Source: a virus
Taxonomy: Duplodnaviria; Heunggongvirae; Uroviricota; Caudoviricetes
Reading direction: 5' to 3' (one strand)
Length of the DNA stretch: 64,000 nucleotides
Virus record (IMG/VR): IMGVR_UViG_2703718869_000013
Coordinates: 1 to 64,000 of that record
The position numbers and the translations under genes are program-made. The first letter of the stretch is position 1, and the number at the start of each line of letters is the position of its first letter. Below are positions 4,256 to 63,632 of the stretch, one piece after another. Under the pieces are notes generated by a model, which saw only the letters and a list, made by a program, of their open reading frames with translations, made no database searches and was not told where the DNA came from.

Positions 4256-5518
4256 TCAGCGAACGTAAATAGTGCCGCCGTTCTCTTTTTCCCATGCATC
4301 GCTACGTGCATAGCAAACATCAAGAAGTCTTCTTGCCGCTGTTTTCTCTAAACCCAATTCGACAACCAACTGCTCATGACGGCGGGTAACCACATCAAAC
4401 AGGGTATGCAACCCTTTAGTTGCCAGATCATCAATGAATTCCGGTTCGAACGGCAGCTCTGCATCTGCCAACATAACCTCTTGCGCCCACTCAACTCGAC
4501 GGACCAATTCCGGGCGGCGGCTTTCCATTTCTTTACAGATCAATTCATGGAAGAACTCTACCCAACCTTCCGGCTGGAACTCGCGGAAAATTGCCAACGG
4601 CTGGAAGTTTGGCATCAACCATTCGTTGATTCGGATATCAATGGCATAGCCCATGTCGCAGCAGAACTGATAAGCAAAGTCCAGCTTAGAAACGATATAA
4701 GGACGCTCGTTATTGAACTCTTTAGGCGATGAGATCCCATAAGCCAGGAGGCGCGGGAAGAAGGAGATTTGCCCTAACGTCGGATGAAGTTTGCTTGCAG
4801 GGAAACGGCGCTCAGTAATGCCATACATTTCCTTCTTGAGCGTCGCAAATTTGGCATTCTCATTAACCAGCGCGGTAACCTCTGCTTTTTTATTAGCAAA
4901 TGCCACGCGCGCCTCGCTTGCATCTTTAATAGTTTTTTTGAGCTGTTGGTTAAGGTCGGCGACCTGCTTACGCAGTTCCTGTCGCTCGCTTTTAGCTTTG
5001 TTATAGCGTTTCTCAAGGTTAAAAGGATCAAGTTTCATGATCTCTTTATATTGAGATTTTAGCGTTGAAATCTGTGAGTTCCGCAGTTCAACCATCGCGG
5101 TCATTTCATTGAGTTTTGTTTCCAGCTCAATGCTTATACGTTCGGCATTATCAGCACGCTGGTTGGCGTCATGCGTCGCATCGTCGATCGCGTCCTGTTG
5201 CTGGCGTTTCAAATGTTCAATTTGCAGCTGAAGCTCTTCAATTTCTTTACCCTTCAGACCGAGATCCAACTGCATATTTTCAGCTGCATCTACCAGGGAG
5301 TTATGGCTATCAGCTTCTGCGTTATAAACATCAATAAGCTGTGCGTGAAGCATCTCCGCTGACTGAACCGCATTATCAAAAAAACGTGCTGTGAGGTCAT
5401 CACAACTAACGCGGCGTTGCGCGGCCCGGATGTTCTGGATAATGGCCGGAATACCGGCATTCAGGACATCAGGAATAGATACATTTTCGATTGATTGGTT
5501 TTGTGCTGAAGTGCTCAT
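4256..5518 (-). CDS. hypothetical protein with long central coiled coil (420 aa)
   Basis: heptad-rich Q/E/K/L segment between residues ~90 and 230; good coding length. Confidence 0.45.
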   Translation of the reverse strand: MSTSAQNQSIENVSIPDVLNAGIPAIIQNIRAAQRRVSCDDLTARFFDNAVQSAEMLHAQLIDVYNAEADSHNSLVDAAENMQLDLGLKGKEIEELQLQIEHLKRQQQDAIDDATHDANQRADNAERISIELETKLNEMTAMVELRNSQISTLKSQYKEIMKLDPFNLEKRYNKAKSERQELRKQVADLNQQLKKTIKDASEARVAFANKKAEVTALVNENAKFATLKKEMYGITERRFPASKLHPTLGQISFFPRLLAYGISSPKEFNNERPYIVSKLDFAYQFCCDMGYAIDIRINEWLMPNFQPLAIFREFQPEGWVEFFHELICKEMESRRPELVRRVEWAQEVMLADAELPFEPEFIDDLATKGLHTLFDVVTRRHEQLVVELGLEKTAARRLLDVCYARSDAWEKENGGTIYVR

Positions 5519-5519
5519 T

Positions 5520-5738
5520 TCAAAGTTCCGTATTAGCTTGTGCTTCGGTCATTTTTCCTAAGTATGAAGGAGGAAGGACTACGCAATTTGTATCCAGTCC
5601 CTCACCTATGGCAGCCTGTAAAATTCTGGCTAAGGTGAGTCTCTTGTTGCGATACCTGGTGATGACATGCCTGATACCGCCGGTCGGCGTAACAAAGGCG
5701 ATCAGCCAGTAGTGATATTTCCGTCGGAATGGCCACAT
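5520..5738 (-). CDS. hypothetical protein (72 aa)
   Basis: first ORF downstream of operator pair; coupled to 4256..5518. Confidence 0.3.
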   Translation of the reverse strand: MWPFRRKYHYWLIAFVTPTGGIRHVITRYRNKRLTLARILQAAIGEGLDTNCVVLPPSYLGKMTEAQANTEL

Positions 5739-8541: not shown

Positions 8542-9120
8542 TTAAGCAGCATGCAACCACTTATCGCCGTTCAATACATGCTCAATAGCCTCACCCTTTT
8601 TAAGACTTATGTATTCCAGGATGGCGGTAATCGCTTGTTCTGCACCATACGCAAGAACAACGTAGTAGCCTTCCTCTCTAAGCCTGCGCATCCAGGCGAT
8701 CTGCTCTTTCGTCGGGGCTTTACCATTTGGTTCTTTAAGCTCAATTCGCATGCCGTGATAAATACCGCATGCTTTATCGAGACTCATGTCCGGATAACCT
8801 TTTTTCTGCCCTTCAGCCTTCATTTTCCCGGCGGTTGCTTTTGAACGCTTCCCTCCGTTAGGCGTTGCATGCAACAGCTCATAGATGTCAGGGTGCTTGC
8901 GTTCGAAGTAATCAAAAATGAAAACCTGCTCGAAGTGCTCGCAATTTCCGTCGCGCAGGCCTGGGTTCTTTGCCAGTGCTGCAAGTGCCTTCGCATGTGG
9001 AGAAACTTCTTTTACCGGCGCAAGCGATAAGAATGGATCCTTTTTGGTTTTTGGCCTGGACCGCCCCTTATTTCGACGCTCACTAAAAGCCTGAAACTCT
9101 TCCTCAGTAAAGCGCAACAT
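8542..9120 (-). CDS. VRR-NUC domain nuclease-like protein
   Basis: C-terminal region with ATPNGG...AGKMKAEGQKKGYPDM pattern typical of VRR-NUC. Confidence 0.6.
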   Translation of the reverse strand: MLRFTEEEFQAFSERRNKGRSRPKTKKDPFLSLAPVKEVSPHAKALAALAKNPGLRDGNCEHFEQVFIFDYFERKHPDIYELLHATPNGGKRSKATAGKMKAEGQKKGYPDMSLDKACGIYHGMRIELKEPNGKAPTKEQIAWMRRLREEGYYVVLAYGAEQAITAILEYISLKKGEAIEHVLNGDKWLHAA

Positions 9121-9122
9121 AA

Positions 9123-9368
9123 TCAGTCAAATCCTGCCGGTCGCATGCCATATTTACGCTGTTTTGCGGCCTGCTCTTCCCTGTGCCATTGCGCACATTC
9201 AGCGTCACAATAAATGCCTGATTCAATCGATTCATTGCAGTAACGACACTTCCCTGTAAATACCTGGCTCACGACCTGTGCCTGCTTTCTGATGTTATCG
9301 ATGGCCATGTCTTTGAGAGCTTCTAACTGATTCATGCTCAGCTCTGCATCATCAACACGTTCTGCCAA
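9123..9368 (-). CDS. TraR/DksA-family C4 zinc-finger protein
   Basis: CRYC...(10 aa)...CDAEC zinc ribbon in an 81-aa protein. Confidence 0.55.
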   Translation of the reverse strand: MAERVDDAELSMNQLEALKDMAIDNIRKQAQVVSQVFTGKCRYCNESIESGIYCDAECAQWHREEQAAKQRKYGMRPAGFD

Positions 9369-9424
9369 TTTTGTTTTCTCGTGAAGAACCTACTTAAGGG
9401 CAGAATGATACATTTCACAATCAA

Positions 9425-9441
9425 AATTGCACTAATAATTT
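9425..9441 (+). promoter_or_regulatory. C1-type operator (15/17) in divergent intergenic region
   Basis: attgcactaataatttt. Confidence 0.45.
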
Positions 9442-9514
9442 TCTTTTATTGAGTTAAATATTCAACAAATGACTAGCGGTAGAATCACCATCATCTATTT
9501 CTGGCAGGCTGACT

Positions 9515-38374: not shown

Positions 38375-38671
38375 ATGGAAATTGATTTTTCATACTCTCC
38401 TGAAACGATAGAACGAAGATTCGAAATAATTGGATGCAAAACTATTTCAGAGGAGCATTATTGGATTCTCTATGATGCCAATACATGGTTATGTGCCTTA
38501 GCAGAATGTCGGCCATCGTTATGTGCAGGGGAGGGAGGACTTCGACATAAGGTGCTGGCTACACTTGAAGTGAACACGTTACGATATTGGTGTGTCGAAA
38601 TACTTAGGGATAACAAAGAATTACATTTATTATTGCTGAATAAGTGTGCGCCTCTGCGCAGGAAAGCATAA
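38375..38671 (+). CDS. hypothetical Cys-containing protein (98 aa) in AT-rich cargo island
   Basis: ORF track; followed by hairpin gaacccga...tcgggttc plus T-run at about 38796..38835. Confidence 0.3.
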   Translation: MEIDFSYSPETIERRFEIIGCKTISEEHYWILYDANTWLCALAECRPSLCAGEGGLRHKVLATLEVNTLRYWCVEILRDNKELHLLLLNKCAPLRRKA

Positions 38672-38837
38672 GAAAACCCAACCGCCATACTGGAATTATC
38701 AGAAGAATATGTGCGGAAAGTTATAGCTAGCTATTGAAAAGCTAAAGTAGATCGGTTAGATTTACTTTACTCATCTACCATGCGTAGAAAGAGCGATCGA
38801 ACCCGATACATAGCAATATGTGTCGGGTTCAGCTTTT

Positions 38838-39317
38838 TTATGTCCCAAGTGCTCTTTTTCTGCTTTGTTTGAGTGTTCTGATTTTACTGTCATAGGTTAC
38901 AACATAGGCTGTTTTGAGAAGCCAATAGTCTCTACGTGCGGATAGCACAACAACGTAGTTTTCACACTCGTTCCAGATTACCCACTCTTCAGTTGGTCCT
39001 CGTCTTTCAGACCAACATGATATATCGCAATGGTCATAATTCCTTATCATATGCGCGATCCAGCGGATCCGCTTACACCGTTCAAGATCTGGTATTCGTT
39101 CTTCTTCTATTTTTCCCTCTGATACTAAATGCCAAAATCCGAACTCTTTCCCATCATATTCCGGTGAATAACGTAATCGAACAGGGAGACCCTTAAACGT
39201 TATATTAGAGATTAAAATATCTTCTCTAACAACATCATATACATCGTCTATATACTCTTGCCAACTTCCATTGAAGTACAATAAATCTGGCATTTGAAGC
39301 ATCAGCGAGCCTCCCAC
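38838..39317 (-). CDS. hypothetical protein (159 aa), partner of DUF3800-like gene
   Basis: 16-nt overlap with upstream gene; AT-rich codon usage unlike flanking phage genes. Confidence 0.45.
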   Translation of the reverse strand: MGGSLMLQMPDLLYFNGSWQEYIDDVYDVVREDILISNITFKGLPVRLRYSPEYDGKEFGFWHLVSEGKIEEERIPDLERCKRIRWIAHMIRNYDHCDISCWSERRGPTEEWVIWNECENYVVVLSARRDYWLLKTAYVVTYDSKIRTLKQSRKRALGT

Positions 39318-40006
39318 ACGAAAATATTAAATTTACTTTCTGTTGGAAGAGTGCTTTTTAGTAACTCCCTGTTTGTATGTGATTTTATCCTGTTTATGAC
39401 TTGGATTTTTCCCGCGTTGCTATTCATTCCTCGATGAACGTAGCCTAACGCACCAATGAAAAGATCCGTTAGCTGCAATTGTTGCACTTCATGAGATCGT
39501 ATATGTTGAATTCTGTTTATCGACTCATGATTGTAATCATAGCGATCATTGTGAAGAACTCCTCTTAATTTCTCAATTTTTTCAATACCTAAAGTATCTT
39601 TTATATCTAGGTAGATATTGTATGTGTTGTTACTTTCTATTATGTTTTTTAAGACATAAAAAAACATCTTATAATAGAAAGTATTATGATCTTGATGGAA
39701 TCGAGCATGGTCCAGTTGCTCTTTATCAGGAACAACAACACCTCTAAAGCGCAATGCTGGGTTGCTGAAGAAGTAATCTACGACCTCTAAGTAAAATTCA
39801 ACTTTGGACGCAGATACTTTAGTCCACTTGATTTCGAAATCAGGTTTTAAATTGTGTTTTAATTTTAATCCCTTGATGTCTCTAGCAATTTTTTTTGTGA
39901 TAGTGCCAGGACACCAAAGCGCACCCAATACCATGACTTTATTATGATCATTTAGTAGGTGACAGGATTCATCGCAGAATACATTAAATGTTCTTCGGTT
40001 CAACAT
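39302..40006 (-). CDS. DUF3800-like protein (234 aa)
   Basis: N-terminal FCDESCH (DESG-like) and C-terminal SHEVQQLQLTDLFIGAL motifs recalled for DUF3800. Confidence 0.45.
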   Translation of the reverse strand: MLNRRTFNVFCDESCHLLNDHNKVMVLGALWCPGTITKKIARDIKGLKLKHNLKPDFEIKWTKVSASKVEFYLEVVDYFFSNPALRFRGVVVPDKEQLDHARFHQDHNTFYYKMFFYVLKNIIESNNTYNIYLDIKDTLGIEKIEKLRGVLHNDRYDYNHESINRIQHIRSHEVQQLQLTDLFIGALGYVHRGMNSNAGKIQVINRIKSHTNRELLKSTLPTESKFNIFVWEAR

Positions 40007-40174
40007 GTTAACTCCACTTATTGTTAGGTAGAATTGTCCGTTAGTTGTTTATTAATTGCAATAATTGGACGTTCTGATTTGCTAACTACGTCATCTTACC
40101 AGGACGCCTATGAGTTTTCCTCATGGCAAACTAGAGGTGTTGAAAGTATGCATGGTTATAATTAGAGCAATCTA

Positions 40175-41020
40175 TCACCCTCTGAATCCTACCGGTATAC
40201 CCCATTGTTCGTTATCTTTATTTTTGGCTAATACCGCATTAAGAGCTTCGTTTACCGTCATGCAATGCGGTAGATTATCGAAGTTTGATATCCAGCCAAT
40301 ATCAGGAGAACGCTTGTTCTTCAGGTAAGCATATTTCCGCGCTGCCGCCTCTACTTTCTGCTTGAACTCATGTTTTTGAGCGCGTTTTTTGGATAACCGC
40401 AGATTGTCAGCCTTTGCTTTTGCTTCAGCGATCCATGAAGTCAATTTTTTGAGTCTGGTCGTTCCGGCACCGCCGGAAACTGATCTTTTTGTTTTTTTAA
40501 CTTGTGACTTCTTATTCTTTATTGCCACGTCATCCTGACAGGGGGAGGGGGTATCATTTTGACATGGGGGTGTGGATAAAAAATTAAATAAAGCCAATGT
40601 CTTAGCGAGAACAGCTTTAACCTTGGTTGCCGCTGAAGAGATCTTTAATTTGCTTTCAATCAGCGCATTTTTGGCTTGTTGTGCGAAGGCCAAAAAGGAT
40701 GGTGTAAACCGGTACAGGTTAGCGCGACGTTCACGGTGATCGCCGATAACAATCTCTACAGACAGAATTCCTTTGTTTACAGCTTCACGGAATGCACGAA
40801 CGACGGTTGATTGGCTATAACCAGTTTCTGCCGCGATCAGGCGGTGAGGCTTGTGAATGAAGTATTCACTGGTTGTTGCCGCTAGATTTGCACATTGCGA
40901 CAGGATATGCCCGGCGCTACGAGATAGACCGGAGTGTGTTACAAAGCAGGCCAATTCATAGCCAGAAAAAGTAAAATCGCTCATCGTTATACAGCTCAGG
41001 AAAGTGACTTTAGCCAGCAT
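40175..41020 (-). CDS. repL: lytic replication initiator RepL
   Basis: 281 aa, immediately downstream of kilA under a C1 operator, as in the P1 kilA-repL operon. Confidence 0.6.
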   Translation of the reverse strand: MLAKVTFLSCITMSDFTFSGYELACFVTHSGLSRSAGHILSQCANLAATTSEYFIHKPHRLIAAETGYSQSTVVRAFREAVNKGILSVEIVIGDHRERRANLYRFTPSFLAFAQQAKNALIESKLKISSAATKVKAVLAKTLALFNFLSTPPCQNDTPSPCQDDVAIKNKKSQVKKTKRSVSGGAGTTRLKKLTSWIAEAKAKADNLRLSKKRAQKHEFKQKVEAAARKYAYLKNKRSPDIGWISNFDNLPHCMTVNEALNAVLAKNKDNEQWGIPVGFRG

Positions 41021-42014: not shown

Positions 42015-43058
42015 TTAACCTATTGCTACTGGTTTTAACAAACCAGCATCAAGTAGCTTGCGAGTTAACCACTGCTGGCCTTTACCCGTTAATTGGGGCG
42101 TCAGCCGTATCTGGTAGCCATTTTCATCATCCAGCACCACTTCTTTCACCGTGAAATACCCGGCGTTAATGTACTGCTGGCGCGGTACGTTTTTGCGCGC
42201 ACCAAAAGCCATGAGAATGCCGTTCTGGCGCAACCATGAGAAAAGGGCGTTTTGCTTAAGTCCAACGACCTTTGCAAAGTTCCCGATCAGGATTCCATTA
42301 GCCGCTGATACCCGGTCGGCAAAATCGACTTTAGGGGCTGCGGCCACCAGCTGTTGTTCCAACTGCATTTTCTGTTCTGCCAACTCGGCAGCCAGGCGTA
42401 GAGCTTCTGGTAATGTTTGGGGGATCGATGGGGTAGGGGAGTTTGCCTGCTGCAATTCTTCCAGTTTGTCGATCAGCGAACGGCGGACCGCTTTTGACTC
42501 GCGCGCGGCGACTCGCAAGGCTTGTTTGTAGGTCATGGTGATGACCTCAAAAGAGCGCCCAGCCCTTGTGCCATGGGATTTTGCACTTTTTGTGTAAAAT
42601 TCACCTTCAAGTTCATCGAGTATTTTTTCGATGAATTTATTGTTTCTAACCTCTGGTTCTCCACATAACTTGCGTGCCTCATTGACCATCTTCAACAATG
42701 TTTGGCTGTCGATTGTGTCTCCGGTGTTGGGGATGACATTCACGGCTGGTGTTGGCGTAGCTGACGTAACAGGTGCTGGTTTCTCAACATTCAAATTTTT
42801 ACCGGTCACTCTATGTGCCTCCTTTCTCATTTCTGCTGCCACCGTTGCGTAACGTAGACGTCCTTGTTCAATCAAATAATCCCTGATCTCGGCTATCAGT
42901 AGCCTGTTGATCACAGCCTTATCTGTTCGGGTATAAAAACGCCTGGTTATCATGAAATAGTTGGCAATTGCGCCGGGGATCTCCCGTGTCGGCATACAGG
43001 CAGTATGCAGGGCGATTGCTTCGGCTATGTCATTACGGGTGACGAGAGGTTTTTTCAT
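42015..43058 (-). CDS. ant: antirepressor Ant (immI copy 2)
   Basis: 347 aa, paralog of 14337..15371 with near-identical C-terminal half. Confidence 0.65.
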   Translation of the reverse strand: MKKPLVTRNDIAEAIALHTACMPTREIPGAIANYFMITRRFYTRTDKAVINRLLIAEIRDYLIEQGRLRYATVAAEMRKEAHRVTGKNLNVEKPAPVTSATPTPAVNVIPNTGDTIDSQTLLKMVNEARKLCGEPEVRNNKFIEKILDELEGEFYTKSAKSHGTRAGRSFEVITMTYKQALRVAARESKAVRRSLIDKLEELQQANSPTPSIPQTLPEALRLAAELAEQKMQLEQQLVAAAPKVDFADRVSAANGILIGNFAKVVGLKQNALFSWLRQNGILMAFGARKNVPRQQYINAGYFTVKEVVLDDENGYQIRLTPQLTGKGQQWLTRKLLDAGLLKPVAIG

Positions 43059-43276
43059 AAAACCCCCTGAACGTCGGCAGAGAAGGGGAGGTTCCAGTAA
43101 CTAAGTGAATTGCGCGAGTTAGTTGAAAAACGGGCAGTAAAAATGCAGGGGCCATCAGGCAATTGAGAGCGTGCTTCGTCTTCTGTTGCTGCGATAACGA
43201 AGTGATAGTGGTGTTTTTTACAGGAATAGAAACGCCAGATGAATTCTTGGCGTGCGCAAGGATTGGCATTAACCAT
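43055..43276 (-). CDS. icd: Icd-like small protein (73 aa), copy 2
   Basis: paralog of 15368..15589. Confidence 0.45.
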   Translation of the reverse strand: MVNANPCARQEFIWRFYSCKKHHYHFVIAATEDEARSQLPDGPCIFTARFSTNSRNSLSYWNLPFSADVQGVL

Positions 43277-43490
43277 AGTTACGGCCTCACTAACAGGTTT
43301 AACAACCTGCTACCCGCTGTCAAACAGGTGGCAGGACGTGACAGGGTTGACAGACTGGCGTTAGTGAAACCAGCAGGCCGAAGCCTCCCCATCACGCCCC
43401 ACCATAATTCGGGCGTAACGCGGTTTACGGACACAAAAATACCGCAATATCGGAAATCTGCGGTTGTCCGCACTAACATTCAGGCTGTCA
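43275..43490 (-). ncRNA. c4: c4-like antisense RNA region (immI copy 2), approximate bounds
   Basis: sites 43287..43294, 43360..43366, 43471..43478 carry compensatory changes relative to copy 1. Confidence 0.5.
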
Positions 43491-43589
43491 AACCTGGTCG
43501 CAGAATTTGCTACGACGGCAGAACTATAAGCCTGAACGATTAAAAGGTCAATATGATGCGAAAAGATAGCATTCGCGACTTAAAAATAC

Positions 43590-43606
43590 AAATTTATTAG
43601 AGCATT
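43590..43606 (-). promoter_or_regulatory. C1-type operator (16/17) upstream of immI copy 2
   Basis: aaatttattagagcatt. Confidence 0.5.
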
Positions 43607-43700
43607 ATTTGTGCAATAAATGCACAAATGGATCTAATAACCTCTTTTTTTTAAAGGCGAAAATATGTACCCTAAATGGGTTATAAGGCAGGTGAGATTA

Positions 43701-43832
43701 TAATGAGAAGACTATTACTACCGTTATTATTTATGGCCGGGACTGTTAATGCAGCATCAAGCGTAAAGGAGATTTGTACCGATTATACGAAATACCTTGG
43801 GCACGTTTACGCCTTTGCGATCAATGACTATT
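43701..43832 (+). CDS. small secreted peptide (43 aa precursor with signal peptide)
   Basis: MRRLLLPLLFMAGTVNA signal-like N-terminus; not in ORF track (under 60 aa). Confidence 0.3.
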
Positions 43833-43855
43833 AATCCATGCGTAGGAGTGGATTT

Positions 43856-44173
43856 ATGCTGATTCGTTTGTTTTTAGTGCTTTCCTTTTTAACATTTAAT
43901 GTTTTTGCTGATGAAGTTGACTTTTCGAAGGTAGATTGCAATTCAGTGGAAACAAGAAAAGCTCTTATTGAAGAATATAACGAAATATTATCGTCATATG
44001 GAATAACAGTGGTTGATTCTTATAATCAAAAAACTATTCAGAAAGGAATAAATAAACTGGTTTGTTATGGGGTTTACCAATATTCAGATGGCTCTTCGGA
44101 GTATGTTATTTATAAAGCATACCCAAATAGTCTTGGTGAATTGATTAGTGAGTTTAAACCGATTAATGAGTGA
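43856..44173 (+). CDS. secreted protein (105 aa precursor)
   Basis: AGGAGTG RBS; N-terminal signal peptide MLIRLFLVLSFLTFNVFA. Confidence 0.45.
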   Translation: MLIRLFLVLSFLTFNVFADEVDFSKVDCNSVETRKALIEEYNEILSSYGITVVDSYNQKTIQKGINKLVCYGVYQYSDGSSEYVIYKAYPNSLGELISEFKPINE

Positions 44174-44180
44174 ATGGAAA

Positions 44181-44960
44181 ATGAAATTATTTAATGTAAT
44201 AACATTTTGTTGTGCTATTTTTGCTGGAAGCGCGATAGCTGATAATAAATTGCCAGATTGGCTTTCTACTTCAAAAAAAGATTATGATTTAGTAAGGGTG
44301 TTCTATTTGTCTGGATTTGCCTCGAAAGCAATGAATAATCAATTTGGTTATCATTTTCCATCTGAGTTGGTTAATGATTTTAAAGATAATGAATTTGCCG
44401 CTCAGGAAAAATGGAATACAATTTCAATTGTATATGGTGAAATAAAATCCATAAGAATGGTGAATAATGAACCAATTGTAGAGTTATTTACTCCAGGGGA
44501 AAATGCAACGCCACTAAATTATATCAAATTGAAAGTGTTGGATTCAAAACAAAACTCTCTGTTAAAACTAAAAAAAGGGGATGATATATATGCAGTGTGC
44601 TCCGGTGCTAATTTTAGGTTAGTGCCAATTCTGAGCAACTGCACTCCAGCAACTGACGTCATTGATGCTGCACTCTCTTTTTCTGGTGAATATATGTTCC
44701 CTGCTTTTGATTCTTTTTCACCTACTAAGCAAAACGTCAAATATATATTCACAAATCAAGATCCTGTTCAGATGATGAATTTTATAGGGTACCTATCCTT
44801 AGTCGATACAACGAAGGATAAGAATAAAATGGATATGGTTCGTAAGTGTACGCCTTGGAAGCCGGAATGTTCACAACAATTCGTTGATGTAATGGAAGGA
44901 TTTGATAACATCATGTATAAATATGAGAGGGAATTTAAAAATTACATAGAATTAAAATAG
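44181..44960 (+). CDS. secreted protein (259 aa precursor)
   Basis: signal peptide MKLFNVITFCCAIFAGSAIA; AT-rich. Confidence 0.45.
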   Translation: MKLFNVITFCCAIFAGSAIADNKLPDWLSTSKKDYDLVRVFYLSGFASKAMNNQFGYHFPSELVNDFKDNEFAAQEKWNTISIVYGEIKSIRMVNNEPIVELFTPGENATPLNYIKLKVLDSKQNSLLKLKKGDDIYAVCSGANFRLVPILSNCTPATDVIDAALSFSGEYMFPAFDSFSPTKQNVKYIFTNQDPVQMMNFIGYLSLVDTTKDKNKMDMVRKCTPWKPECSQQFVDVMEGFDNIMYKYEREFKNYIELK

Positions 44961-44993
44961 TATTTGAAATGATAGTCAATTTAAGTTTTAACA

Positions 44994-45024
44994 AAACGCC
45001 CATTAAAGGGCGTTTTATTGTTTT
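44994..45024 (+). terminator. intrinsic terminator
   Basis: aaacgccc-attaaa-gggcgttt then tattgtttt. Confidence 0.6.
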
Positions 45025-45183
45025 ACTCAAAACAACCTGACTCAAAACAACCTGATTGTGTGATAACCATATGATACTCCTCATTCCATCTACACTACCT
45101 ACTCTAACTTAATGATACCATATTACTCCCGGACGGCAATATTCCCACTCAATGGACAAATGACTACTCGTAGAATCGGGTAA

Positions 45184-45774
<591 letters not shown>

Positions 45775-53406: not shown

Positions 53407-53841
53407 ATGTCTGACGTCTCAACAAACCTCTATAAGAGTCAGTTGTTGGACTATTACTATCAGCGGCGCGCTGAATCGTCCATTAACAAAGGCTCTCGAT
53501 TTTTAATCAGCAAGGCCGTTTTCGGTACCAGTTCTCTGGTTACTAAGAAAGGAGATGGCACTTATGAGATTGGAGAACTGCCAAAGGCTTTCGATCTGGC
53601 AGAACTGACCAGCCAATTTTGTACCATCAACCTCGTGCCAACCTACTCAGGTGGGATAATTACTGTCCGAATGGACCTTGATCAAAGCCAGTTGCAGGAA
53701 GGGAAAAACTACCCATTCAACACTCTGGTTGTTCTGGATAACGAGAACAAGCCAATCGCCATTATTTGTGTCCAGGAAGACTCGCTGTATGTGGGCAAAA
53801 CATATACCGCAGTTATGGCCATAAACACGACTACAGCATAA
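53407..53841 (+). CDS. tail fibre-associated structural protein (144 aa)
   Basis: immediately upstream of the tail fibre gene. Confidence 0.4.
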
Positions 53842-53852
53842 GGATATGCTTG

Positions 53853-56702
53853 ATGAATGACGTTACAGTTGTTACATCGGTTACTTACCCATCACCCGAG
53901 TCGTTGGCTCTGGTTGCTGATGTGCAATACCACGAACCATATCTGTCAGCCGCGCTAAACCGAAAATTCAGGGGGATTGTTGACCCGGGATTTTATGCCG
54001 GTTTCTTACCTAAGCCTGGCGGTGGGATGAACCTGTTAATCACCTCAGTGGATGGAGATAAAACCGCAGGCGCGGCGTCGGTGGATATTGGTGAATTCTA
54101 CCAGGTAACTATTCAGCAATGTACGGATATTCCTCTTGCACTTAGTGCAGGCAAGAAATATGCAATTGTGCTGAAGGGAAGATACCTCCTTGGAGAGGAT
54201 ACCTATCAGGTTAATACCGCGTCACATATTCATGCGGCTGAATTTGTTACCAGAACCTATACCGATTCATATCAGTTAGGAGATGGGGAGCTGCTTGTTT
54301 GTACGGTGAATATCCCTGCTGGAGTATCAGCCATTACCCAGGAGATGATTGATACATCCGAGCGTATTAACCGCACGATCGGCATTGATATCTCAGACTC
54401 TGTAACCAGTAGCAGAAGTGATGTTGCTGCAAGTTCGCTGGCAGTTAAAAAAGCCTACGATCTGGCGAACAGTAAGTATACGGCGCAGGATGCAAGCACA
54501 ACGCAAAAGGGATTAGTTCAGCTCAGTAGCGAAACTAACAGCGACAGCGAAACAATGGCGGCTACCCCTAAAGCCGTTAAGTCTGTAAAAGATCTTGCTG
54601 ATACCAAAGCGCCAATAGAAAGCCCGAGTCTGACAGGAACGCCAACCGCGCCGACGGCAGCGCAAGGTACAAATAGCACGCAGATCGCAAATACAGCCTT
54701 TGTTAAGGCAGCTATAACGGCACTTATCAACGGTGCACCTGGCACACTGGATACGCTTAAAGAAATAGCTGCTGCGATCAATAACGACCCGAATTTCAGC
54801 ACAACTATCAACAATGCTCTGGCTCTTAAAGCTCCTTTAGCAAGTCCTGCATTAACGGGAATACCTACTGCGCCTACCGCTGCACAGGGTACGAATAACA
54901 CGCAGATTGCTACGACCGCTTATGTAAGAGCTGCCATATCCGCATTGGTTGGTTCATCACCAGAAGCTCTTGATACCCTGAATGAGCTTGCCGCAGCACT
55001 TGGTAATGACCCGAACTTTGCGACAACAATGACAAATGCGCTGGCAGGCAAACAGCCTCTGGATGCAACTTTAACCGCGCTTGCTGGTCTTGCTACAGGC
55101 GCAAATAAATTGCCGTACTTTACCGGTACAGACACTATTTCTCAGACTGACTTAACGTCAGTCGGTCGCGATATTCTGGCCAAAACAAGCGTCCTTGCTG
55201 TTATCCAATACCTTGATTTAAGAGAACTTGGCACAAGCGGTGAAAAGATCCCCCTGTTGAGCACGGCTAACAAATGGGGTGCACGCCAGACTTTCAACGG
55301 TGGGATCACCGGGGCGCTGACAGGGAACGCCGACACCGCGACGAAATTAAAAACAGCCATAAACATTAATGGCGTCAGATTCGATGGTTCGGCTGACATT
55401 AATATCAATACTCTGGTATCTCGCGGTCGCGTAACGGCCCTAGAGGCGAATGCACAGGGAACATCCGGGATTCAGCTGTATGAGGCATACAACAATGGCT
55501 ACCCTTCCCCCTATGGCAATGTGCTTCACCTTAAAGGTGCCACCGCTGCTGGCGAAGGTGAGTTATTCATTGGCTGGAGTGGCACGAGCGGTGACCATGC
55601 GCCCGTACATATCCGTTCGCGGCGTGATACTGATTCTGCCAACTGGTCTGAATGGGCGCAGGTCTATACGTCAAAAGATTCAATTCCCGGCGTCAATGCC
55701 AAAGGGGATCAGGACACCTCTGGTAATGCGGCTACAGCGACCAAGTTGCAGACAGCATGTACTATCAATGGCGTCTCGTTTGATGGTTCTACTGATATCA
55801 CTTTAACCGCTGCGCATGTTGCTGCTTTTGCCAGAAGAGCAACGGATACGTATGCCGATGCGGATGGGGGCGTTCCCTGGAATGCCGAATCAGGCGCTTA
55901 CAATGTCATTCGCTCTGCCGACAGCTATATTCTGGTTAACTTCTATACCGGAGTCGGAAGTTGCCCGACCTTGCAGATGAAGGCGCATTACAGAAATGGT
56001 GGTCTGTTCTACCGTTCTTCAAGAGACGGTTATGGTTTTGAGGAAGACTGGGCAGAAGTTTATACCTCGAAAAATCTTCCACCAGAAAGCTACCCAGTCG
56101 GCGCACCAATCCCGTGGCCATCAGATACCGTTCCGTCTGGTTATGCCCTGATGCAGGGGCAGACTTTTGACAAATCTGCATACCCGAAACTTGCAGCGGC
56201 TTATCCGTCAGGCGTTATTCCTGATATGCGTGGCTGGACGATTAAGGGCAAGCCCGGCAGTGGTCGTGCCGTATTGTCTCAGGAACAGGACGGCATTAAA
56301 TCGCACACCCACAGCGCCAGCGCATCCAGTACGGATTTGGGGACGAAAACCACATCGTCGTTTGATTACGGTACTAAAACGACCAGTTCATTTGATTACG
56401 GCACAAAAACTACGAATAGCGCTGGAAATCATTCACACAATATACCTGTTGGTCACACTGGCGCGGGGAATGGTGTATCAGCCGGTTTTAACGCTGCGTT
56501 AGGTACTGGTACCACGTCGAGCGCAGGCGAGCATGCTCACAATGTATATATCGGTGCCCATAACCACACTATCGGCATTGGTGCTCATGCCCATTCTGTC
56601 ATTATTGGTCCCCACGGACACACCATCACCGTTAACGCTACGGGTAACGAAGAAAACACCGTAAAAAACATCGCATTTAACTATATTGTGAGGCTTGCAT
56701 AA
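53853..56702 (+). CDS. tail fibre protein (about 949 aa) with repetitive C-terminal receptor-binding region
   Basis: repeats LTG(T/I)[11 protein letters not shown](S/N)TQIA(N/T)TA and [10 protein letters not shown] (two exact copies plus [10 protein letters not shown]), His-rich HxH C-terminus; ATG at 53853. Confidence 0.7.
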
Positions 56703-57280
56703 TGACATTCAGAATGAGTGAACAATCACGGACCATAAAAATTTATAATCTACTGGCTGGAACCAATGAGTTTATTGGTGAAGGTGATGCATACATTCCA
56801 CCTCATACAGGTCTGCCTGCAAACAGTACCGATATTGCCCCGCCAGATATTCCGGCTGGCTTCGTGGCCGTTTTCAACAGTGATGAGGCATCGTGGAATC
56901 TCGTTGAAGACCATCGGGGAAAAACCGTCTATGACGTGGCTTCCGGCGACGCGTTATTTATTTCTGAACTTGGCCCATTACCGGAAAATGTCACCTGGTT
57001 ATCCCCGGAAGGGGAGTTTCAGAAGTGGAACGGCACAGCCTGGGTGAAAGATGCAGAAGCAGAAAAACTGTTCCGGATCCGGAAGGCGGAAGAAACAAAA
57101 AACAGCCTGATGCAGATGGCCAGTGAGCATATTGCGCCACTTCAGGATGCCGTAGATTTGGATATTGCGACGGAGGAAGAGGCATCGTTACTGACTGCAT
57201 GGAAGACATATCGGGTATTGTTGAATCGTGTTGATACAACAGTAGCATCGGATGTTGAGTGGCCAGTCGCCCCGCAATAA
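56702..57280 (+). CDS. tail fibre assembly protein
   Basis: 192 aa, typical Tfa-like protein directly after the fibre gene. Confidence 0.7.
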
Positions 57281-57323
57281 AAGGATAAAGCCATCGATAG
57301 AAATATTGATGGCTTCATGTACT

Positions 57324-57827
57324 CTATTTATACAATACAACACCGCTCTTTTTTGTTATATATGTGCAGTTCGATGGTATATCTTTATTTATAAAAGACA
57401 TTGCACCTATTTTTACATTATCCCCAATTTTACGTGATAATCCAATGATGCAACAATTAGCTCCGATATCAACGTTATTACCAATTTTTACTCTTGAACC
57501 AGGCATGTCACCATCTACCTGTCCAATGGTAGTATTCTGTCGCAAAACCAGATTTTCACCAGCATCAACAGCAAAATGAACAACAATTCCAGTATGATGG
57601 GGAATTGTTAAACCTTTTCCAATATTTGCGCCCAATCCAATTTCGCAACCAAATCTGTTAATTATATTATTGTTTAACTTTCTGGCTGCTTTCTTATGTA
57701 ATTTATTGCCATTAATATACATTTCATTAGCCAGTCTCCACCAGAAAAGGAAATTCCGATTGCGCTGCTTCTTCTCTCTTAATAGTCGCCAAACATCCAT
57801 TTTTTCACGCCTGATGATTTCAGCCAT
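57324..57827 (-). CDS. hexapeptide-repeat acyltransferase (serine acetyltransferase/WcaB-like)
   Basis: left-handed beta-helix hexapeptide repeats (GCEIGLGANIGKG, IGNNVDIGANCCI, IGDNVKIGA); AT-rich; start set at internal MAEII. Confidence 0.55.
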   Translation of the reverse strand: MAEIIRREKMDVWRLLREKKQRNRNFLFWWRLANEMYINGNKLHKKAARKLNNNIINRFGCEIGLGANIGKGLTIPHHTGIVVHFAVDAGENLVLRQNTTIGQVDGDMPGSRVKIGNNVDIGANCCIIGLSRKIGDNVKIGAMSFINKDIPSNCTYITKKSGVVLYK

Positions 57828-58604
57828 CCAGTAGCTCAATAGAGCTTTTGAATTCCCGAAGATGACAAAGTGAATAGCTATTAAGTAACATAACATATTG
57901 CAACTGCCTATATTTTTTGGTTTCTATGTTTATATATTGACATTATAATTAAAACAATAATCATCAGTGTGTTACTGCGTTCCTGCTAAACTAAATCAAC
58001 GCACAATGTAAACACAAATGTTAATTTTAAACTGAGCGCTAAAGGGATGTCAATATTGTATTGATAATGAGTTGCAAGATTGCCAACACTTTCTATATTT
58101 TTGGATGTAATAATTTATATTTTATCTATTTAGTGTTTCTTTAGACTTATTAAGGATGTCATTATTAATTTATGGCTTGCCATTTCTATACATATCTGTT
58201 AAAAATTTTGACTTGTTTGTTGAAAATAGATTTAATTGATTGGTTTATTTTTTACATGACGCTCTTTAATATAGCTTCAGGTATATATAAGCACAATGCA
58301 TTATTTCCAGAGGAAATTAACAAAATTGTTAGCTCTTATTTGTTGAGCTTATAGATATTAATTAAGGCCCGATTCCGGGCCTTTCCTCATTCCGGCTTTT
58401 CGGGAAACGTTACTGGAAGGATGGAGGTATCCGTGGATTCGACTTTCTGCGCATAGAGAATCCACTCGGTTAATTTTTGTTTACCCTGAACGGAAATAAT
58501 GCCTAGCCGTAACTGTGAGTCCCAGAGCTGAGTTTTATCCCTGACGAGCTGTAGCAGGCTTTGCTTTTCTTTTTCCGCTTGTTGTCTTTGCATGACCGGT
58601 TGAG

Positions 58605-58622
58605 AAGTTACTTTGCATACCA
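58605..58622 (+). promoter_or_regulatory. putative P1-type late promoter upstream of lydA (AAGTTACTT, 4 nt, TACCAT)
   Basis: same palindrome and spacing as at 32902. Confidence 0.35.
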
Positions 58623-58651
58623 TTACCTCCTGACAACGTAGGAGGGAACTT

Positions 58652-58981
58652 GTGCTTGACACACAGGAATTAGCTCCAGTTGCTATTGCGCTCCTGCTTT
58701 CAGTAATTGGTGGGATAGGCACGTTCCTGATGGATGTCCGAGACGGTCGCCAGTCTGGCAATTTGTTGGGATTGGTTACGGAGATCTTTGTTGCAGTGAC
58801 AGCTGGCGCGGTGGCGTACCTATTGGGGCAACACGAGGGCTGGGAGTTATCAATTACGTACTTAATGGTAACGATAGCCAGCAATAACGGTCATGAGGTG
58901 ATTTCAGGGATGAAACGAGTGAATATCGATAGCATTCTGAATGTTCTTACAAGTTTGGTGAAAAAGGGAGGTGGGAAATGA
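58652..58981 (+). CDS. lydA: holin-like membrane protein
   Basis: GTG start with GGAGGG RBS; two or three TM helices in 109 aa; first gene of lyd-dar operon. Confidence 0.5.
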   Translation: MLDTQELAPVAIALLLSVIGGIGTFLMDVRDGRQSGNLLGLVTEIFVAVTAGAVAYLLGQHEGWELSITYLMVTIASNNGHEVISGMKRVNIDSILNVLTSLVKKGGGK

Positions 58982-62293: not shown

Positions 62294-63632
62294 CATCCTC
62301 CACGCCCCGAAGGGCGTGGATTCCTGCTACGTTCAGGCTGTCGCCTGAATCATTTCGGTGGGTTCCTGCTTCAACGGGCGGCCTGACTGCACCATCCCTC
62401 CACAGGCAAGTACGGCGTGTCCCGCCGCTAAAATGTTACGAGCGCCGTTTACATCGGCGTTCGCTGTATATCCACATACCTGGCATCTGAATTTACTTTG
62501 TGACAGGCGATTTTCTTTCGCTGTATGACCACAGCACGCGCAACGCTGGCTTGTGTACGCTGGCGGAACAGCAAGCACCTGACCGCCACGCCAGAGCTGC
62601 TTGTACTCAAGCTGGCGGCGCATTTCATACCAGCCCTGATCCAGTATCGAACGGTTTAAACCTGATTTTGCCCGGACATTGCGACCCGGATGACTTATCG
62701 TTCCCGCCGCTGACTTTGACATGTATTTAACCTTCAAATCCTCAATGACAATCATTGCGTGGTTTTTGCTGATGATCGTTGTGACTTTATGAAGGTAGTC
62801 TCTGCGGATATTTGCGATACGAAAATGCAGTCGCTGTATTTTGCGTTTCTGCTTCTGCCAGTTGTTGCTGAATTTGACCTTGCGGCTTAACTGTCGCTGA
62901 AGTCTCGCCAGCTTCTTCTGGTTTTTCTGAAAACTGTTTACAGGCTCAAAGACTGTGCCATCTGACAGCGTGGCGAGTTTAGCCACGCCAGCATCCAGCC
63001 CGATCATTGATGCTGAAGGGTGAACCGGAGTGGATATTTCACTTTCTGTCTGAATACTGATGTACCACTTACCGCAGGACTGGCTGACAGTGACATTTTT
63101 CACAACTCCCGTGACCTGACGGCTATTCCGGTAGCGCATCCAGCCCAGTTTCGGCAGAAAAATACGGCTGTTTTCCTGATCGAGCTTAACGCCCTGCGGG
63201 TAGCGAAATGCATCATTCTGTCCCCGCTTTTTGAATCGGGGAAAAGCAGCCCGATTCTGGAAGAAGTTTTTGTAAGCCCGCTCAAGGTCTTTCAGTGACT
63301 GTTGCAATGGCTGTGAGGGAGAATCTATAAGCCATTCGGTTTCAGTGTCTTTTTTCCACTCAACCAACCAGGAAGCCATTTTCGTGTAAGGGATGTATTT
63401 TTTACCGGCCTCATGATTCTCATTCTGAAGCGCCAGAGCACGGTTGAAAACGAAACGACAAGCTCCGGCAAAGTGCCTCATTTGACACTCCTGTTGACCA
63501 TCTGGTTTTAACCGGAATTTGAATGACACCTGTTGTTTCATGTCACTATTTTAAGCAAAAATAGCCGGGAGGAAAACTGTGCCTTATATCCCCACTATGA
63601 GGAGCGTAGGGGGCGGCACATTGGATAAGGCG
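62294..63632 (-). mobile_element. IS200/IS605-family insertion carrying only tnpB (ends approximate)
   Basis: tnpB ORF; subterminal hairpin 62300..62319; TTAC at the proposed left-end junction (about 63633..63636 on the minus strand); no tnpA. Confidence 0.55.
62333..63541 (-). CDS. tnpB: TnpB (OrfB) RNA-guided nuclease-like transposon protein
   Basis: RuvC-like [20 protein letters not shown] and zinc finger CACCGH...CQVCG; 402 aa. Confidence 0.85.

Follow-up and report, generated by a model that had tools for sequence, protein, structure and literature searches.

We examined the AT-rich kilobase at positions 57300-58390 of a 64,000-nucleotide (nt) stretch of viral DNA (hereafter the window; IMG/VR record IMGVR_UViG_2703718869_000013), which is a P1-like phage-plasmid, as an earlier note on this DNA had recognized and as synteny with P1 and the phage-plasmid JL22 bears out. 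Comparison of genes and repeats with these two elements showed the locus to be the decayed middle of a P1-type invertible tail-fibre segment (C segment), within which a minus-strand acetyltransferase gene and an AT-rich spacer are nested as cargo. Our overall reading, held with evenly divided confidence, is that this remnant carries an autonomous accessory gene (moron) whose product would O-acetylate a surface glycan, likeliest lipopolysaccharide (LPS).

The position of the AT-rich region, between S-U and lydA, is that of the P1 C segment and cin. In P1, Sc-cixR-(Sv-U) converges on (U′-Sv′)-cixL-cin, followed by lydC and lydA, and the convergent genes U and U′ are separated by 28 bp only. The corresponding order in JL22 is S-tfa-[acetyltransferase-spacer]-U′-Sv′-cin, with U′, Sv′, cin and lydC intact, a different fibre tip and lambda-type tail-fibre assembly gene (tfa) substituting for P1 Sv-U, and the acetyltransferase gene (annotated “sacF”) and AT-rich spacer lying between tfa and U′. 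The window is colinear with JL22 except for the deletion of ~2.9 kb (8969-11866 of the JL22 locus that we compared, L001). Lost with it were cin, lydC, Sv′ and the 5′ part of U′, together with the right 0.6-kb repeat and the cix site this contains; the junction lies at 58570-58592 in the window. Given that no clear microhomology was found at this junction, the deletion was provisionally assigned to illegitimate recombination.

What remains on either side of the cargo identifies the segment. Inside gene S lies an orphan cix site (55201-55226, plus strand; TTATCCAATACCTTGATTTAAGAGAA) that differs from P1 cixR and JL22 by a single G>A change (25/26 bases), two bases from the crossover dinucleotide, a change that could be neutral decay following the loss of cin. 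The left copy of the C-segment 0.6-kb inverted repeat is retained at 55203-55791 (plus strand) and matches JL22 and P1 twice each, in opposite orientations, the right copy being deleted. Beyond the spacer, the C-terminal ~67 codons of U′ persist as a stump (58387-58591, minus strand; phrog_3792, phrog_136), which is read as a 78-amino-acid open reading frame (ORF) because an ATG in the lydA leader was fused onto it. Just past the U′ stop, a GC-rich hairpin (58364-58383, minus strand; -15.8 kcal/mol, z = -2.4) is shared with the 28-bp U′/U intergenic region of P1 (window 58360-58591 corresponds to P1 12346-12115). The P1 late promoter LPdar is intact (58605-58623, plus strand; 19/19 identical to P1 LPdar) and drives lydA-lydB-darA, directed away from the cargo.

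The earlier note had advised looking for crossover sites or a recombinase elsewhere in the element; none came to light besides the orphan cix. No second cix site, full or half, was found in the 64-kb window at ≤3 mismatches, no Cin homologue was detected anywhere in the window (tblastn with P1 and JL22 Cin, E ≤ 1e-3), and no large inverted repeat remains in it. With cin and half of the segment deleted, the segment in the window is thus unable to invert, and the mutated orphan cix, the missing Cin and second repeat, and the U′ stump together indicate a fibre frozen in the Sv-tfa state. The earlier proposal that cargo occupies the place of the P1 invertible segment therefore stands with respect to position, the kilobase lying at the U′-Sv′-cin site, and fails with respect to substitution: the cargo is nested inside a remnant of the segment. 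Likewise, the alternative fibre exons and cin are absent from the window as supposed, with the separate ~2.9-kb deletion, not the cargo, as the cause.

This deleted form is the commoner one, as the junction was present in 49 and the spacer in 65 of the 5426 complete E. coli genomes searched, and it has been isolated as a virion, namely phage vB_EcoM-Ro157c2YLVW. In this same genome set, sensitive blastn found the spacer to be plasmid-borne in all 65 cases (0 chromosomal) and restricted to P1-like plasmids. Over 56600-58900, the window is 100% identical to ~20 plasmids of Shiga toxin-producing E. coli (STEC), e.g., NC_013370.1 of O111:H- strain 11128, and 97% identical to vB_EcoM-Ro157c2YLVW.

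To follow the intact segment in relatives, the JL22 segment predicted after Cin inversion was built in silico and searched against PLSDB. The intact cargo-bearing segment occurred in 12 PLSDB plasmids, eight in the JL22 state and four inverted (CP123199, CP126933, OQ423471 and CP009051; 98.5-100% identity end to end). The annotation of OQ423471 reads R, S (Sc+Sv′), U′, spacer, acetyltransferase (same strand), tfa (opposite strand) and cin. On these alignments, the cargo of JL22-type relatives demonstrably sits mid-segment between two convergent chaperone genes and inverts with the segment; the occurrence of both orientations among relatives thus corrects the picture of cargo in place of an invertible segment.

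The composition of the kilobase sets it apart from its surroundings. Its GC content (0.319, compared to 0.472 window-wide) is the minimum among all 1091-bp windows taken across the sequence (z = -4.0; 0.08% of them equally low), with 0.351 in the acetyltransferase ORF and 0.282 in the spacer. It follows the tail-fibre gene S (53766-56702) and tfa (56702-57280, plus strand), which occupies the P1 U position, is of the lambda Tfa type (Pfam Caudo_TAP, E = 8e-43) and is 90% identical to lambda tfa at the nucleotide level. Starting 43 bp past the tfa stop, the acetyltransferase ORF (57324-57896, minus strand) encodes 190 amino acids of the LbH (CysE-fold) type, five N-terminal helices preceding a left-handed beta-helix, and is followed by the non-coding spacer (57897-58386; 490 bp, 28% GC). 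An AT-rich kilobase after tfa holding an opposite-strand acyltransferase and ~490 bp of ORF-free DNA is thus what the earlier note had described and what we found. The longest ORF of the spacer (60 amino acids, 58172-58354) was rejected as a gene, being frameshifted by a 1-bp indel in JL22 and vB_EcoM-Ro157c2YLVW. No annotated feature occupied the spacer among the listed example records, and an Rfam scan of 57000-58900 (E ≤ 1) returned nothing credible within it.

The fibre tip, tfa and the enzyme also occur together outside P1-like elements. A stretch running from the last ~200 fibre codons through tfa to the acetyltransferase start codon (56091-57888) shares 95.9% identity with a P2-like prophage in E. 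coli O104:H4 (L004 4802-6599), 87% with a second locus (L005) and 87-91% with prophages of O157:H7 and a bovine isolate; this unit is common to P2-like and other myovirus prophages. Judged from these alignments, fibre tip, tfa and enzyme travel together between phage types as a mobile cassette, and the anticipated horizontal acquisition of cargo beside the fibre genes is upheld. The acetyltransferase gene itself was found in 530 of the 5426 complete E. coli genomes (~10%), mostly on the chromosome. The same gene, at 93-96% nt identity, lies between tfa and the tail genes in the P2-like prophages of O157:H7 and O104:H4, a site known in P2-like phages as the Z/fun hotspot (bioRxiv 10.1101/2024.10.15.618418). 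Among more remote members (35-67% identity), the gene likewise converges on tfa or fibre genes, for example in another P2-like prophage, Hafnia phage yong2 and Citrobacter phage phiNP; others sit at prophage ends.

These comparisons show how the region came about. A JL22-type ancestor had Sc-cix-(Sv-tfa) converging on (acetyltransferase-spacer-U′-Sv′)-cix-cin; its Sv tip, tfa and acetyltransferase had arrived together as one 1.8-kb cassette; and a later deletion, the ~2.9-kb one described above, locked the element in the Sv-tfa state.

Several further observations concern the cassette and its relatives. In one P2-like prophage (L023 5617-5880), a 67%-identical homologue is flanked by a truncated 87-amino-acid Caudo_TAP remnant, followed by a methyltransferase gene and then a full tfa, a layout that suggests repeated cassette insertions leaving tfa stumps, as in the window. 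The P2-like prophage of O157:H7 EC4115 (L003 4401-5991) has a degraded IS3 element where the fibre gene preceded tfa, with tfa and acetyltransferase intact. A 56%-identical homologue on large E. coli plasmids (L020 and L022, both 5001-5594) neighbours type IV pilus genes (prepilin peptidase, SLT), IS66 copies and EspF/IpaB-like fragments; its place beside pilus genes indicates that the acetyltransferase family also occurs outside phages. Lastly, the Rfam family IS009 (RF02111) matched 57045-57243 on the plus strand (192 bits, gathering threshold 117), wholly within tfa, and this “sRNA” seems to have been modelled on the 3′ segment of prophage tfa.

We next consider whether the gene is functional. 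An alternative account, in which it is a decaying and functionless hitchhiker co-transferred with the fibre tip and tfa, draws on the decay around it, evident in the deletion, the mutated cix site and the truncated U′, and on the spacer, which has no detectable function. The gene itself tells otherwise: its 190-codon frame is intact in 6/6 contexts, including those in which the first 32 codons have diverged at the DNA level; the ratio of nonsynonymous to synonymous substitution (dN/dS) is 0.12-0.21 and holds at dS from 0.4 to >2, which indicates purifying selection; and the gene is kept in the hundreds of E. coli genomes counted above. We therefore regard mere hitchhiking as very improbable.

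Transcription signals around the gene are consistent with independent expression. The best sigma-70-like match in 57200-58700 is a putative promoter, TTGACA-18-TAAAAT (58053-58024, minus strand; 11/12 consensus), ~120 nt upstream of the acetyltransferase ATG, and both of its hexamers are kept in JL22 and vB_EcoM-Ro157c2YLVW, where the spacer also has 1-bp indels. Folding of the putative 5′ leader gave a stability no greater than that of shuffled sequences (z = 0.16). In the gap that separates tfa from the convergent acetyltransferase gene, a hairpin at 57287-57315 (minus strand, -17 kcal/mol, z = -4.6; plus strand, -16.4 kcal/mol, z = -4.7) is kept in 6/6 contexts and is followed on the minus strand by UUUAUCCUUUUAUU, a U-rich tail that makes it a probable intrinsic terminator of the acetyltransferase unit. 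No P1 late promoter directed towards the acetyltransferase was found in 57201-58700, LPdar being the sole match and pointing away; thus, expression would be expected in the lysogen. Together with the absence of the gene from P1, where U and U′ lie 28 bp apart, and its GC content (0.32 vs 0.47), these signals suggest an autonomous moron with its own putative promoter and terminator.

As to what the enzyme does, every source names the gene serine (O-)acetyltransferase, and on this basis it could be a genuine enzyme of that kind, an auxiliary metabolic gene raising the synthesis of O-acetylserine and cysteine in lysogens or while the phage grows. The structural evidence goes part of the way with that name. 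AlphaFold2 (82 homologues) modelled the protein with a predicted local distance difference test score (pLDDT) of 96, and both the top PDB sequence matches and the closest solved folds are serine acetyltransferases (CysE; TM 0.72, 22-28% identity). A BFVD fold search was uninformative, with a best match of TM 0.26. In E. coli numbering, CysE His158 and Asp143 are catalytic and Asp157, Arg192 and His193 are serine ligands (PMC9547175); these roles were mapped onto the enzyme by HMMER pairwise alignments and the alignment of the 82-homologue family. Both catalytic positions are conserved, His158 as His100 (kept in 81/82 homologues) and Asp143 at position 85 (Asp or Glu in 82/82).

The serine ligands, however, are lost. 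The position of Asp157 is Pro99 here and, across the 82 homologues, Pro in 41, Ala in 11, Phe in 6, Gly in 6, Ser in 4 and Ile in 3, Asp not being among the six commonest residues; the Arg192/His193 positions are variable or absent, and of the two pairwise alignments one lacks a residue in this stretch. Profile scores point the same way. All curated NCBIfam cut-offs were missed despite matches to EpsC (1e-22), CysE (5e-18) and WcaB (2e-15), with 65.6 bits vs 210.65 for TIGR01172 (cysE), 42.2 vs 397 for PRK11132 and 56.5 vs 194.65 for WcaB (TIGR04016 / PRK10191); the score against Hexapep was also below cut-off (24.6 bits vs 27). The match to PHROG 2154 was full-length (E = 1.9e-83), with residues 13-190 aligned to profile positions 3-181 of 185. 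CysE binds CysK through a C-terminal Ile tail, whereas the enzyme in the window ends in ...VVLYK. Because the serine-ligand residues are lost, a housekeeping-type serine acetyltransferase, the outcome that would have spoken against a surface role, is unlikely, and we consider true serine acetylation for cysteine supply improbable, all the more so as distant relatives are paired with LPS enzymes (below). The database name is a domain-level label, and the residue analysis argues for what is probably an active acetyl-CoA-dependent O-acetyltransferase of CysE-like fold with an acceptor other than serine.

Another acceptor to be weighed is a xenobiotic, as the LbH family includes Vat/CatB-like antibiotic acetyltransferases and P1-like plasmids bear resistance genes, e.g., blaCTX-M-55 in JL22 (PMC9603915). 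A resistance gene of this kind is highly improbable here: no Vat/CatB enzyme was among the 23 NCBIfam or 34 PDB sequence matches, the N-terminal helical domain is of the CysE type, and PLSDB holds no resistance-gene prediction at the acetyltransferase.

One indication of an acceptor comes from gene neighbourhoods in Xenorhabdus and Photorhabdus, where homologues and LPS-core-type enzymes make up tight two-gene units. In Xenorhabdus bovienii prophages (L014 6001-7393), 58 bp separate a homologue (52% identical across 78% of the query) from the family-25 glycosyltransferase gene (Glyco_transf_25) downstream of it, with baseplate genes adjoining; in a prophage region of Photorhabdus (L019 5001-6520), the downstream gene encodes a WaaZ/Kdo-III-type enzyme (WaaZ_KDO_III) and lies 38 bp from the homologue (48% identical across 85%), with fibre genes adjoining. 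LbH enzymes are cytoplasmic. From this property, the pairing with LPS enzymes and the constant linkage to receptor-binding genes, we infer acetylation of LPS or another lipid-linked glycan. Most likely, the enzyme would act on the cytoplasmic side of the inner membrane, and the acceptor would be a sugar belonging to LPS (the core or a lipid-linked O unit) or to some other envelope glycan. Such acetylation would alter the surface bound by the fibre, the predicted outcome being lysogenic conversion or the exclusion of phages whose fibres are alike. Lysogenic conversion is our best hypothesis, drawn from genomic context and residue analysis.

A number of points weigh against this assignment. The literature on characterized members offers only “unknown” or “fitness” statements and no phenotypic or biochemical datum: the JL22 paper gives the reason for the gene as unknown (PMC9603915), the phiNP study lists it merely as “fitness” (PMC6456863), and PHROG 2154 is labelled “unknown function”. 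The promoter is a consensus match alone, and the pairing with LPS enzymes is seen only in the homologues of 48-52% identity. The link to tfa might reflect no more than a late-operon end that tolerates insertions. The fold comparison included no solved structure of a WcaB-type sugar acetyltransferase, so the CysE fold match does not discriminate between acceptors. Finally, the P2-like hotspot is known mainly for intracellular defence genes (bioRxiv 10.1101/2024.10.15.618418).

This last point leads to the possibility that the gene, like other P2 Z/fun cargo, serves in anti-phage defence or counter-defence by acetylating an intracellular target (phage or host protein, nucleotide or small molecule). 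P2-like prophages hold it in a hotspot of defence systems, fibre swaps and invertases (bioRxiv 10.1101/2024.10.15.618418), and in other phages an abortive-infection family protein, HicAB and hok are encoded nearby. Zero PADLOC-DB v2 families matched at E ≤ 1, the gene is a lone small enzyme lacking a sensor or effector partner, and its linkage to fibre tips and LPS enzymes indicates the surface, so that we view a defence role as rather unlikely.

Under the preferred reading of surface-glycan acetylation, a more specific and decidedly tentative proposal, which we ourselves doubt, is that tip, tfa and enzyme act as a “recognise-and-mask” cassette, in which acetylation would target exactly the LPS or envelope structure to which the co-transferred fibre tip binds; an acquiring phage would obtain at once a new host range and lysogen immunity to phages with the same fibre. 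In intact C segments, Cin inversion is predicted to flip the context of the enzyme, with sense read-through from the late S-U′ operon in one state and from cin in the other; given such inversion-dependent read-through, surface acetylation could follow the fibre switch.

Elsewhere in the window, two more AT-rich islands were noted, at ~38600-40600 (minimum GC 0.35 per 1.09 kb), which encodes a DUF3800 ORF (39302-40006, minus strand), and at ~43200-45400 (minimum GC 0.32), where ORFs lacking a Pfam match adjoin a KilAC antirepressor gene (42015-43058, minus strand); both probably represent additional variable or moron regions in the P1-like backbone. The window ceases to be colinear with JL22 and P1 at 62289, and directly after ddrA a 402-amino-acid TnpB-like ORF (62333-63541, minus strand; HTH_OrfB_IS605, OrfB_IS605 and Cas12f1-like TNB) looks like an insertion of the IS200/IS605 family between ddrA and ddrB.

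The gene as such is already known, being annotated in hundreds of records and noted in the JL22 paper (PMC9603915). What is new is that this region of the window is the deletion remnant of a cargo-bearing C segment, that the intact segment inverts together with its cargo, that fibre tip, tfa and enzyme move as one cassette across phage types, and that the enzyme, devoid of the CysE serine-binding residues, is linked to LPS enzymes in its relatives. A host-range cassette with an accessory gene has thus moved among P1-, P2- and other myovirus-type phages and settled within a DNA-inversion switch; in the prevailing lineage of STEC plasmids, this switch has since been lost. About one in ten complete E. 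coli genomes carries the gene, including O157:H7, O104:H4, O111 and O26 STEC, under a misleading automated label of cysteine biosynthesis, one that the residue analysis speaks against. If LPS or another envelope glycan is indeed acetylated, the enzyme would be a widespread and unrecognized factor of lysogenic conversion or phage exclusion, with relevance to serotyping, phage therapy and STEC ecology.

Set against known systems, the locus resembles the P1 C segment, with which it shares its position between R-Sc and lydC/lydA, an Sc part of 96% identity, 25 of the 26 cix bases, the 0.6-kb repeat, the U′ 3′ end and LPdar; it differs in having a lambda/T4-like tip and tfa for Sv-U plus 1.1 kb of cargo, and in lacking the second cix, Cin, Sv′ and paired repeats. 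JL22-type phage-plasmids (“sacF”; PMC9603915) have tfa, acetyltransferase and spacer at the same site with 96% identity, and are distinguished by retaining U′, Sv′, cin and lydC, whereas the lineage of the window (49 genomes and vB_EcoM-Ro157c2YLVW) has the 2.9-kb deletion. With P2 Z/fun hotspot morons, the gene has in common its AT-richness, opposite strand and own (putative) terminator, although the cargo known there consists of Z/fun, defence systems and toxins, and the host element here is P1-like. From the CysE/WcaB/EpsC branch, whose fold and catalytic His and Asp/Glu it shares, the enzyme departs in its shortness (190 amino acids), its missing CysK-binding tail and its unconserved serine ligands. 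For the kind of enzyme proposed, the nearest precedent is NeuO, encoded by prophage CUS-3, a soluble hexapeptide-repeat, acetyl-CoA-dependent O-acetyltransferase of the E. coli K1 polysialic acid capsule that alters phage and immune recognition and raises phage resistance (PMC3046976, PMC13001214), and whose crystal structure has been published (PMC3046976). NeuO is not among the 34 PDB sequences matched by the window enzyme at E ≤ 0.001, and the latter has a CysE-like helical N-terminal domain and no repeat-based phase variation; the likeness is thus limited to the proposed mechanism and the phage context.

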